DNA of 64,000 nt from a virus. Its lineage: Duplodnaviria > Caudoviricetes. Both the position numbers and the translations under genes were made by a program. The notes beneath the pieces are model-generated. The model ran no database searches and was not told the DNA's origin. It was given only the letters and a program-made list of their open reading frames with translations. Of this stretch, positions 1,931 through 2,202 are shown in pieces. The stretch's first letter is position 1. Every line of letters starts with the position of its first letter. Location: IMG/VR virus record IMGVR_UViG_2706794911_000004, positions 1 to 64,000 of that record. One strand, written 5' to 3'.

Positions 1931-1959
1931 ATTATATGATAACTAGTTACTCTTTACAA
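1931..1959 (-). promoter_or_regulatory. SigA-type promoter of the recombinase
   Basis: TTGTAA-17 nt-TATAAT on the minus strand, about 35 nt upstream of the ATG. Confidence 0.7.
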
Positions 1960-1969
1960 GAAGGAAAGG

Positions 1970-2122
1970 TTATAGTTTTTCTAAATCAGCTTTAGCTTTA
2001 GTATAAAGTTCATAGTCAATTATTCCTGCTTCATACGCTCTTTCATTGATTCCAAGCAGTATTTCTTTTTCAATATTTCTATCAGCGACACCTAAAATAG
2101 TCTGCTTCGTAATATTACTCAT
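1970..2122 (-). CDS. 50-aa protein, candidate recombination directionality factor (RDF)
   Basis: ATG at 2122 with RBS AAGGGGGG; SHOCT-like tail GIIDYELYTKAKADL; directly upstream of the serine recombinase. Confidence 0.6.
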   Translation of the reverse strand: MSNITKQTILGVADRNIEKEILLGINERAYEAGIIDYELYTKAKADLEKL

Positions 2123-2143
2123 ATTTCTCGCCCCCCTTGTTAG

Positions 2144-2172
2144 AGTATATGTGTAAATGCTTGTCCTATATG
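2144..2172 (-). promoter_or_regulatory. SigE-type (mother-cell) promoter of the candidate RDF
   Basis: CATA-17 nt-CATATACT fits the SigE consensus ATA-N16-18-CATAcanT. Confidence 0.55.
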
Positions 2173-2173
2173 T

Positions 2174-2202
2174 TATATACTGGACAAGTAAAGAAAAGTT
2201 AA
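2174..2202 (-). promoter_or_regulatory. Phage ECF-type promoter copy 1 (RDF)
   Basis: TTAACTTTT-N10-CCAGTATATA. Confidence 0.75.

Follow-up and report, generated by a model that had tools for sequence, protein, structure and literature searches.

What would turn a phage recombinase towards cutting its prophage out of a sporulation gene, and which signals would set that event in train? The question is raised by a stretch of viral DNA of 64,000 nucleotides (nt; IMG/VR record IMGVR_UViG_2706794911_000004, positions 1 to 64,000; hereafter the window), which holds part of a prophage of about 108.8 kb inserted at codon His-405 of the host gene spoIVA. Beside the host junction, the gene of a large serine recombinase is preceded by an open reading frame (ORF) of 50 amino acids (aa), which itself lies behind two stacked promoter motifs. 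From this arrangement and its comparison with other loci, we consider it probable, though only by a modest measure, that the 50-aa protein is the excision-directing partner of the recombinase. Such a directionality factor is needed for recombination between attL and attR, and blocks recombination between attP and attB. The directionality factors of serine recombinases have no common sequence or fold (PMC12286644), and each new family must therefore be found by its context.

The split spoIVA gene and the small gene beside its recombinase

The host genome (5.39 Mb, 99.99% complete) has a single copy of the SpoIVA ATPase domain, at C28:133443-134153, and a sole SpoIVA_C domain, at C28:23887-24114; both lie on one strand of one contig, C28, with 109 kb between them. 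spoIVA is present in 15 of 20 related genomes and is uninterrupted in all of these, and the query matches these relatives only to residue 404. When both prophage junctions are aligned with the intact spoIVA of three relatives, the break falls after ...APSLH, and joining the junctions regains the in-frame reading ...APSLH/FIRAD... (...LHFIRADI...; the slash marks the junction) together with the host sequence ...TCTTTACA/CTTCATT.... The host segment at the start of the window aligns with the intact spoIVA of relatives from ...H/FIRADI onward and encodes the complete C-terminal domain (SpoIVA_C, ORF aa 556-631, Pfam E 5.6e-34), and both halves of the gene are intact and in frame. In the literature searched, supplementary files lying outside its scope, we found no description of spoIVA as an interrupted gene.

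The recombinase ORF occupies positions 1-1896 of the minus strand and, within the window, is at least 631 aa long. Its Pfam domains (Resolvase, residues 25-171; Recombinase, 192-298; Zn_ribbon_recom, 316-371) and a coiled-coil region that is conserved in alignment A3 identify it as a large serine recombinase, and a comparison with GenBank phages gave no relative above 39% identity. In the integrated state this ORF runs on in frame through the final ~92 codons of spoIVA, which would give the enzyme of the prophage a SpoIVA C-terminal domain; after excision, a phage-encoded tail of 38 residues would take its place. The same in-frame fusion of recombinase and SpoIVA is seen at three other loci (L006:4001-5908, L007:4001-5899 and L071:3189-5096), while the recombinases of L008 and L010 stop near the junction.

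Relatives of the recombinase were collected from 61 loci. The six closest ones with upstream DNA (L006-L011, 41-55% identity) all have a co-directional homologue of the small ORF directly upstream, including L009, whose small ORF was left out of the seed profile and was still recovered at the expected position with E 4.4e-10. The recombinase is followed by the 3' part of spoIVA in five of the six and by the 3' part of sigK in L011. One of these loci, L006, is a natural element of about 2 kb in spoIVA with only two genes, arranged within ~2.1 kb so that the small ORF follows the 5' part of spoIVA and precedes a recombinase with SpoIVA_C fused to it; because this element holds nothing but the small gene and the recombinase, the 50-aa ORF becomes a strong candidate for a directionality factor. 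The reverse search, seeded on the small ORF itself (with the narrower alignment A2), found L067-L073. The small ORF precedes a recombinase in L069-L073, and this recombinase runs into spoIVA in L070 and L071; the sequences of L067 and L068 end before a downstream gene could show. Among 400 sampled genomes of the class, 12 (the genome studied here included) match the small-ORF profile, and at ten loci from the other genomes, counted after exclusion of a weak match inside a 976-aa frame (L095), a recombinase lies directly downstream in eight and is absent in two (L085 and L086). The small ORF and the recombinase share one mobile element and are kept together, and this gene order supports the conclusion that it is a conserved partner gene of the recombinase clade that splits spoIVA or sigK.

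Judged by its conservation, the 50-aa ORF is a real gene. The same prophage carries a paralogue beyond the window (C28:109534-109665, plus strand, equal to L003:9532-9669), which is inverted and lies 84 kb away; it encodes 45 aa and is 93% identical to the 50-aa protein over 44 residues. The ratio of non-synonymous to synonymous substitution rates (dN/dS) was computed for three sequence pairs: across a 31-codon core, the ORF and its paralogue differ by five nucleotides and one residue (dN/dS 0.06), and the small ORFs of L071 and L067 gave 0.26. The paralogue has its own ribosome-binding site, a terminator-like hairpin before the gene and an IS66-accessory-like ORF nearby, and it has neither a copy of the phage promoter nor the ATA-N15-17-CATA motif described below. 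A longer frame of 129 aa (1970-2359, TTG start), which overlaps a 169-aa gene on the opposite strand, was without support and was set aside.

The family alignment, A4, comprises 20 sequences and is free of gaps over a 35-residue core. With a profile of these 20 members, at least 154 proteins were matched at E <= 0.001 among 297 candidates from a collection of 5.8 billion proteins; the sole source name among them is 'hypothetical protein', and none has a Pfam domain. The family thus delimited consists of unannotated proteins of 45-70 aa, and a Pfam scan of the 20 aligned members returned only four unrelated families, each in one member. Searches with the 50-aa sequence alone recovered far fewer proteins: a word-based search gave one cluster, whose representative is the paralogue, and HMMER gave 4 matches at E <= 0.001 against 1.84 billion representatives. 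One of these four, a repetitive 710-aa protein, was taken as spurious. Nothing above cut-off was obtained in Pfam, PHROGs or NCBIfam; the best sequence match in the Protein Data Bank was YqgQ (E 0.48); the ESM Atlas offered three unnamed clusters (0.78-0.79), under the trust level; and tblastn against 50,697 GenBank phage records, SPbeta included, gave no match at E <= 1. The AlphaFold model of the protein shows a helix (residues 4-31), a loop and a second helix (37-48), with a mean pLDDT of 84 that rises above 93 from residue 21, and the protein is accordingly predicted to be a helical hairpin and not a DNA-binding fold. Counted from the translation, it is acidic, with nine acidic against seven basic residues.

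Promoter motifs around the small gene

The preliminary description of this DNA had placed the 50-aa ORF at 1970..2122 and, ahead of it, CATA (2172-2169) and CATATACT (2151-2144) at a distance of 17 nt, and both readings hold; the -35 region CATATA also gives ATA at N15, besides CATA at N17. In C. difficile, SigE and SigK promoters have a common -10 box and are told apart by the -35 element, which is ATA for SigE and AC for SigK, and mother-cell sigma -10 boxes take the forms CATATTAT and CATATAAT with a classical spacing of 16-18 bp (PMC3789822). The region upstream of the small ORF joins a -35 ATA to a CATA-type -10 box, as a SigE promoter does, and AC, the mark of SigK, was not found 15-18 nt upstream of the -10 box. 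Host genes carry comparable motifs: the spoIVA promoter reads GTCATATT-...-CATATATT (ATA-N15-CATA), one homologue each of spoIIP and spoIIM has GTCATA-N16-CATATT, and spoIIID has TCATATT-N14-CATAGAAT. The pattern was seen in four of eight host candidate genes, at spacings of N14-16.

Such a motif is rare at this distance from a gene. Across 3662 host upstream regions, CATA.A.T lies 25-36 nt from the start in 36, and ATA-N15-18-CATA.A.T lies there in 4, or in 12 if the distance is widened to 20-60 nt. Within the small-protein family, ATA-N15-17-CATA occurs within 80 nt upstream in 13 of 19 members, compared with 3.3% of 3669 host regions; near-identical copies (L068-L070, L072 and L073, equal to L071, and L092, equal to L091) were dropped before this count. 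The flanks are mostly unalignable across the family, which argues for selection on the motif. On these counts, the SigE-type promoter before the small ORF is more than chance.

The spacer of this putative promoter contains a further element. The sequence TAGGACAAGC is the high-affinity SpoIIID consensus according to a report that cites work on Bacillus subtilis (PMC11180830), and an exact copy of it lies in the space between the two boxes. The 10-mer occurs 14 times in the genome, compared with 6.3 expected, and the window copy is the only one beside a CATA box. Host homologues of SpoIIID and of a spoIIGA-sigE-sigG cluster are each encoded above the curated cut-off. A sigma-A reading of CATATACT was rejected: its TATACT would need CATATA as the -35 element, which matches at 2/6, and the site is absent from the sigma-70 scan.

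The outer motif, TTAACTTTT-N10-CCAGTATAT, lies 52 nt from the ATG, and the mother-cell promoter falls within that interval. It belongs to a repeated family that the preliminary description had counted as nine copies, and a repeat search returned the same number of window sites (at 2173, 5372, 13046, 17131, 17818, 20478, 23089, 42218 and 52918). A strict form of the motif is found at 11 places in the 5.39 Mb of the genome; the prophage holds 10 of these, all co-directional with genes. With a second pattern, contig C28 has 11 matches, none of them outside the prophage, and in ten cases an ORF that has a ribosome-binding site starts 16-117 nt downstream. More copies are found on the plus-strand arm of the prophage, beyond the window. 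By this distribution, the phage promoter family is real and nearly confined to the prophage. All copies have AAC in the -35 element and C(C/T)(G/A)GTA as the -10 element, mostly in the form CGGTA, with CAGTA in the copy before the small ORF. Promoters of extracytoplasmic function (ECF, group 4) sigma factors have a -35 element with AAC and a -10 element with CGT, about 16 nt apart. Calling the phage promoter 'ECF-type' is a guess that draws on the resemblance of its AAC-bearing -35 element to this consensus.

Family searches show that the prophage encodes two sigma factors and an HU-like protein. Sigma 1 matches NCBIfam TIGR02980 with E 4.6e-32, under the curated cut-off of that model. This divergent SigF/G-like factor adjoins the integration module, and sigma 2 lies downstream of a primase-like gene. 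A pattern search of IMG/VR found no close relative of either sigma factor, and the phage motif itself matched 45 stretches there with one match each and no multi-copy contig. As no related phage that links the motif to a sigma factor was found, the promoter is not assignable to either of the two by co-occurrence.

The small ORF and the recombinase gene are 73 nt apart in the window, and the preliminary description had given the recombinase a promoter of its own in this gap, TTGTAA-17-TATAAT. The site is there, matches the consensus at 10 of 12 positions and recurs in relatives, but taken alone it is not significant, a scan with the sigma-70 consensus having returned 7 sites in 2 kb compared with 6.0 expected by chance. 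Between the two genes of other loci, sigma-A-like sites score 11/12 in L006 and L071, 12/12 in L087 and 9/12 in L007, and L009, read by eye, has TTGACA-17-TATAAT spanning the stop codon. At L008, L010, L011 and L088-L094 the small gene and the recombinase abut, overlap or are no more than 87 nt apart, and no site there exceeds 8/12; their arrangement is of the skr-spoIVCA type. In the window, the gap that separates the two genes holds no listed terminator-like site.

At the same place, a hairpin on the minus strand (1893-1978) pairs a pyrimidine tract that follows the stop codon of the small ORF with the ribosome-binding site of the recombinase (-20.9 kcal/mol, z -2.1; 8 of 200 shuffled sequences fold as well). 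Transcripts that start at the recombinase's own promoter would lack its 5' arm. Pyrimidine-rich tracts were seen by eye at the equivalent place in L006, L007 and L071, and folding of the whole leader and gene region gave z -0.2.

A two-input excision model, its precedents and its rivals

What the locus displays is anatomy, and each step of activity in the model that follows is carried over from three studied systems. A sigma-A-like promoter of its own would keep the recombinase at a low, steady level, and the enzyme, alone, would only integrate, while the small gene would be silent in the lysogen behind its two stacked promoters. During sporulation, the inner, mother-cell-type promoter (-35 ATA, SpoIIID box in the spacer, -10 CATATACT) would allow the small protein to be made after SigE activation, tuned by SpoIIID, and the protein would turn the recombinase towards attL x attR. 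In the mother cell the prophage would then be cut out at the ACA core, and spoIVA would be rejoined in frame and transcribed from its own SigE-type promoter; no phage would be produced, and the forespore chromosome would retain the prophage. In lytic growth, the outer promoter, presumably read with a phage sigma factor and belonging to a family that appears to sit before genes of replication and nucleotide metabolism, would switch the small gene on and lead to release of the genome. A two-input trigger of this kind had been put forward in the preliminary description, and its structural part stands: the linkage of the partner genes, the recurrent mother-cell-type and sigma-A-like promoters, the real phage promoter family, and a host with SigE and SpoIIID. 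The parts that we infer are binding to the recombinase, the activity of the promoters and the sigma factor that reads each, the timing, and excision itself. The sequence features are confirmed at the coordinates given in Table 1, and of the explanations considered, that of the small protein as an excision factor, although unproven, is the best and has good support from comparison.

The skinCd element of C. difficile, reportedly 14.6 kb in size, is a defective prophage, in contrast to the element described here, a phage of 109 kb that has replication genes and sigma factors of its own. It likewise combines a large serine recombinase under sigma A (CD1231) with a small acidic factor under SigE and SpoIIID (CD1234, 72 aa, of unknown family), and when it is excised in the mother cell a sporulation gene is restored (PMC5025042), as is proposed for the window element. 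The target of skinCd is sigK rather than spoIVA, CD1234 is not adjacent to CD1231, and no second, phage-specific promoter is described for it (PMC5025042). SPbeta is a large active prophage that splits a mother-cell gene, its recombinase is made in growing cells (PMC4191935, PMC5499854, PMC11722253), and its 58-aa factor SprB receives two inputs, one from an adjacent upstream mother-cell promoter and one from lytic induction (PMC4191935). However, sprB is found at the far end of SPbeta, its lytic input is read-through from a derepressed upstream operon and no dedicated promoter of a phage-sigma type is reported for it, whereas a phage promoter copy precedes the small ORF here. The targets also differ, spsM being a late SigK gene and spoIVA an early SigE gene.

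In the skin element of B. subtilis, the gene of a 64-aa factor, skr, lies directly upstream of the recombinase gene spoIVCA and is under SigE control (PMC6957869). The adjacent or overlapping layout of this pair reappears in our relatives L010, L011 and L089-L091, while in the window the two genes are separated and the recombinase has a promoter of its own. The gin element in gerE of B. cereus is a non-phage element that splits a sporulation gene, for which a serine recombinase (GirC) and a 42-aa factor (GirX) suffice (PMC5595907); the 2-kb relative L006 is of this kind. It differs from the window element in its target gene and in that girX is not adjacent to girC (PMC5595907), and the window element is a full-size phage. 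For SPmini, too, recombinase and factor suffice for sporulation-specific excision (PMC4191935). A comparable pattern of small gene and recombinase is thus on record for skr-spoIVCA, CD1234/CD1231 and GirX/GirC (PMC6957869, PMC5025042, PMC5595907), and the closest gene layouts to that of the window are skr-spoIVCA and CD1234/CD1231.

Several observations weigh against the excision-factor interpretation. The link between the protein and a recombinase has exceptions, since the paralogue lies 84 kb off and L085 and L086 are orphans. The SigE-type motif misses six of the 19 family members (the minimal element L006, L009, L011, L086, L087 and the paralogue), although L009 and L011 have a full CATA.A.T box without ATA, and the nominal binomial probability of 1e-15 for its recurrence is an indication that overstates the case, because the loci are related, the start codons were chosen by hand and the background is one genome. 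The -35 element is imperfect, in that the host promoters have GTCATA at N14-16 and the small ORF has either ATA alone at N15 or CATA at N17; the -10 box, for its part, is common to SigE and SigK. The 13 other copies of the SpoIIID 10-mer lie mostly inside genes, and a putative SpoIIID box in the spacer could equally mean repression. SpoIVA is needed early, and excision may be late if it has to wait for SigE and perhaps for SpoIIID as well. The analogy with SprA and SprB drawn in the preliminary description survives as one of function, the sequences being unrelated: family A4 and SprB (L143:2686-2862) give an hhalign probability of 0.1% with E 0.47, and SprA is 23% identical to the window recombinase over 279 residues.

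These points lend themselves to other explanations. It is unlikely, in our estimate, that the small protein is a conserved accessory of the recombinase clade rather than a directionality factor, acting as a regulator of recombinase expression or stability or as an inhibitor in the lysogen. Gene linkage is the sole direct evidence for a partnership, genes without a neighbouring recombinase exist (C28:109534, L085 and L086), and the hairpin over the recombinase leader is a hint that translation of the recombinase from read-through transcripts may be controlled, all of which would suit an accessory. An excision activator, on the other hand, is better suited than a silencer by a mother-cell promoter; the minimal element L006 keeps just the small gene and the recombinase, mirroring SPmini (PMC4191935); and the size, acidity and position of the small protein fit Skr, CD1234 and GirX (PMC6957869, PMC5025042, PMC5595907).

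We regard it as similarly improbable that the protein is a directionality factor for lytic induction only, with a CATA motif that is functionless or is read by SigK too late, so that spoIVA stays split and the lysogen sporulates improperly. The phage promoter copy is a full member of its family, and the imperfect -35 element and the shared -10 box noted above would accord with this account, yet the mother-cell motif recurs in divergent family members, including elements without phage genes, and contains an exact SpoIIID box with no AC at 15-18 nt. Moreover, the motif lies 29 nt from the start codon, and the mapped transcription starts of CD1234 and sprB are 14 and 20 nt upstream of theirs (PMC5025042, PMC4191935). 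The halves of spoIVA are intact and in frame, in a nearly complete genome with the sporulation sigma cluster, which also speaks against a lysogen that leaves the gene split. Least probable is that AT-rich DNA has produced the promoter-like motifs of 2144-2202 by chance and that the small ORF is transcribed otherwise. The sigma-70 scan did find scarcely more sites than shuffled sequence (7 and 6.0), and CATA alone is common, occurring at 25-36 nt in 5.6% of host upstream regions. The full SigE-type motif, in contrast, is present in only 0.1-0.3% of these regions and recurs in relatives whose surroundings are not conserved, and 10 of the 11 genome copies of the phage motif lie in the prophage.

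If the 50-aa protein is the excision-directing partner, its shape invites a conjecture about how it might act, one to which we give little credence: it might be a free-standing copy of the tip of the recombinase coiled coil, a decoy that caps the coiled coils which 'handcuff' attL/attR dimers and that would thereby free excision and block integration. For the 50-aa model, Foldseek ranks residues 402-451 of SPbeta integrase first (E 0.8), and sequence identity too is highest for this match; superposition on this segment, which we infer to be the coiled-coil tip, gives an rmsd of 0.8-1.5 A over 49-50 residues with 26% identity and a VIA Z of 6.1-6.5. In a single BLASTP comparison, residues 30-48 of the small protein match SprA 431-449 at 10 of 19 positions (E 0.002), and hhalign aligns the family with SprA 415-452 (E 0.037). 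Recombinases that lack a coiled coil reportedly excise without a factor. The matched structure entries are those of the SPbeta integrase, and the recombinase coiled coil makes regulatory contacts (PMC11722253). A decoy would differ from the known directionality factors, which bind their cognate recombinase at the second DNA-binding domain or at the coiled-coil base (PMC12286644) and clamp that base. Against the decoy, the coiled-coil tip of the protein's own recombinase family aligns with the small-protein family in position but not significantly (E 0.13), and generic helical hairpins score equally in the fold search.

A second resemblance to the recombinase was examined and rejected. Matched against 66 recombinases, the family profile has its best match on a helix, I-[VI]-S-E-E-[LV]-W-x-K-A, in 17 of the 25 best-scoring ones, and hhalign relates the helix at recombinase residues ~284-302 (window ~990-1047) to the second helix of the small protein with E 0.024 and a probability of 2%. 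Homology to this helix (I-[VI]-S-x-E-[LV]-[WF], near residues 285-300) was discarded: the match was taken for a shared helix-cap motif, as it stays at or below 5.8 bits and reversed sequences yield scores almost as high.

With the 50-aa protein as candidate excision factor, the system is, by its comparison with known ones, a new protein family at a new target gene, in a design that matches SPbeta, skinCd and skin. It carries the idea of a prophage as a sporulation switch to an earlier target gene, spoIVA, and it raises a question of timing, since SigE transcribes spoIVA during the very stage at which the excision factor, too, would be produced. Within 60 bp, the control region combines an exact SpoIIID box with promoters of the phage-specific and SigE types, and it may wire one gene to both host development and lytic growth. 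The unannotated family of 45-70-aa proteins (at least 154 clusters) and the Clostridia recombinases that target spoIVA or sigK offer ready pairs of recombinase and factor for testing.

Feature coordinates and neighbouring genes

Table 1. Positions in the window of the integration module, the promoter motifs and the phage sigma factors
Feature	Position	Strand	Basis or remark
3' segment of host spoIVA (SpoIVA_C)	1..277	-	tail of the recombinase ORF, in frame, integrated state
Large serine recombinase, phage-encoded aa 1-540	278..1896	-	Pfam; PHROG 95 integrase, E 2e-118
Crossover core ACA	278..280	-	phage/host junction; partner ACA at C28:132952-132954, beyond the window
Sigma-A-like recombinase promoter TTGTAA-17-TATAAT	1931..1959	-	10/12 matches
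50-aa ORF, candidate recombination directionality factor	1970..2122	-	ATG at 2122, stop 1972-1970
Ribosome-binding site AAGGGGGG	2131..2138	-	8 nt before the ATG of the 50-aa ORF; read from the sequence
-10 box CATATACT, mother-cell (SigE/SigK) type	2144..2151	-	CATA-type box, 29 nt before the ATG
SpoIIID consensus TAGGACAAGC, exact 10/10	2159..2168	-	in promoter spacer
-35 region CATATA	2167..2172	-	gives ATA at two spacings from the -10 box, N15 and N17
Phage promoter copy TTAACTTTT-N10-CCAGTATAT	2175..2202	-	upstream of the 50-aa ORF
Phage sigma factor 1, 247 aa, SigB/F/G-like, regions 2, 3, 4	2770..3513	-	Pfam
Phage promoter copy	5374..5401	-	before operon: 125-aa ORF, dUTPase-like, dTMP-kinase-like, HU, sigma 1
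Phage promoter copy	13048..13075	-	motif scan
Phage promoter copy	17133..17160	-	before 804-aa ORF, DNA polymerase I-like (reading of translation)
Phage promoter copy	17820..17847	-	motif scan
Phage sigma factor 2, 182 aa, two-domain ECF-like	18830..19378	-	PHROG 1740; in NCBIfam, the sigma70-ECF superfamily model only
Phage promoter copy, looser -10	20480..20507	-	before 345-aa ORF and sigma 2
Phage promoter copy	23091..23118	-	motif scan
Phage promoter copy	42220..42247	-	motif scan
Phage promoter copy	52920..52947	-	-10 CCAGTATAT identical to the copy at 2175-2202

Further ORFs of the prophage appear, from a reading of their translations, to be polymerase I-like, primase-like, ribonucleotide reductase-like, dUTPase-like and dTMP-kinase-like. 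In the operon downstream of the promoter copy at 5374..5401, the HU and sigma assignments come from Pfam, and the dUTPase and kinase labels from such a reading. At the right end of the prophage, just inside the junction and beyond the window (L004:9270-12305), lie ORFs of 342, 192 and 463 aa whose translations read as nucleotidyltransferase-like, HNH-like and CCA-adding-enzyme-like, respectively.

A scan of window positions 1-6000 with Rfam gave no match. Opposed to the promoter region of the small gene, a plus-strand ORF of 169 aa (2256-2765) begins with an N-terminal hydrophobic, signal-like segment; it had no family match in Pfam, PHROGs or NCBIfam, and the lysogen may express it. Farther into the window, at 24197-24962, at least six copies of an 87-nt degenerate direct repeat, 60-90% identical to one another, probably mark a repetitive coding region.

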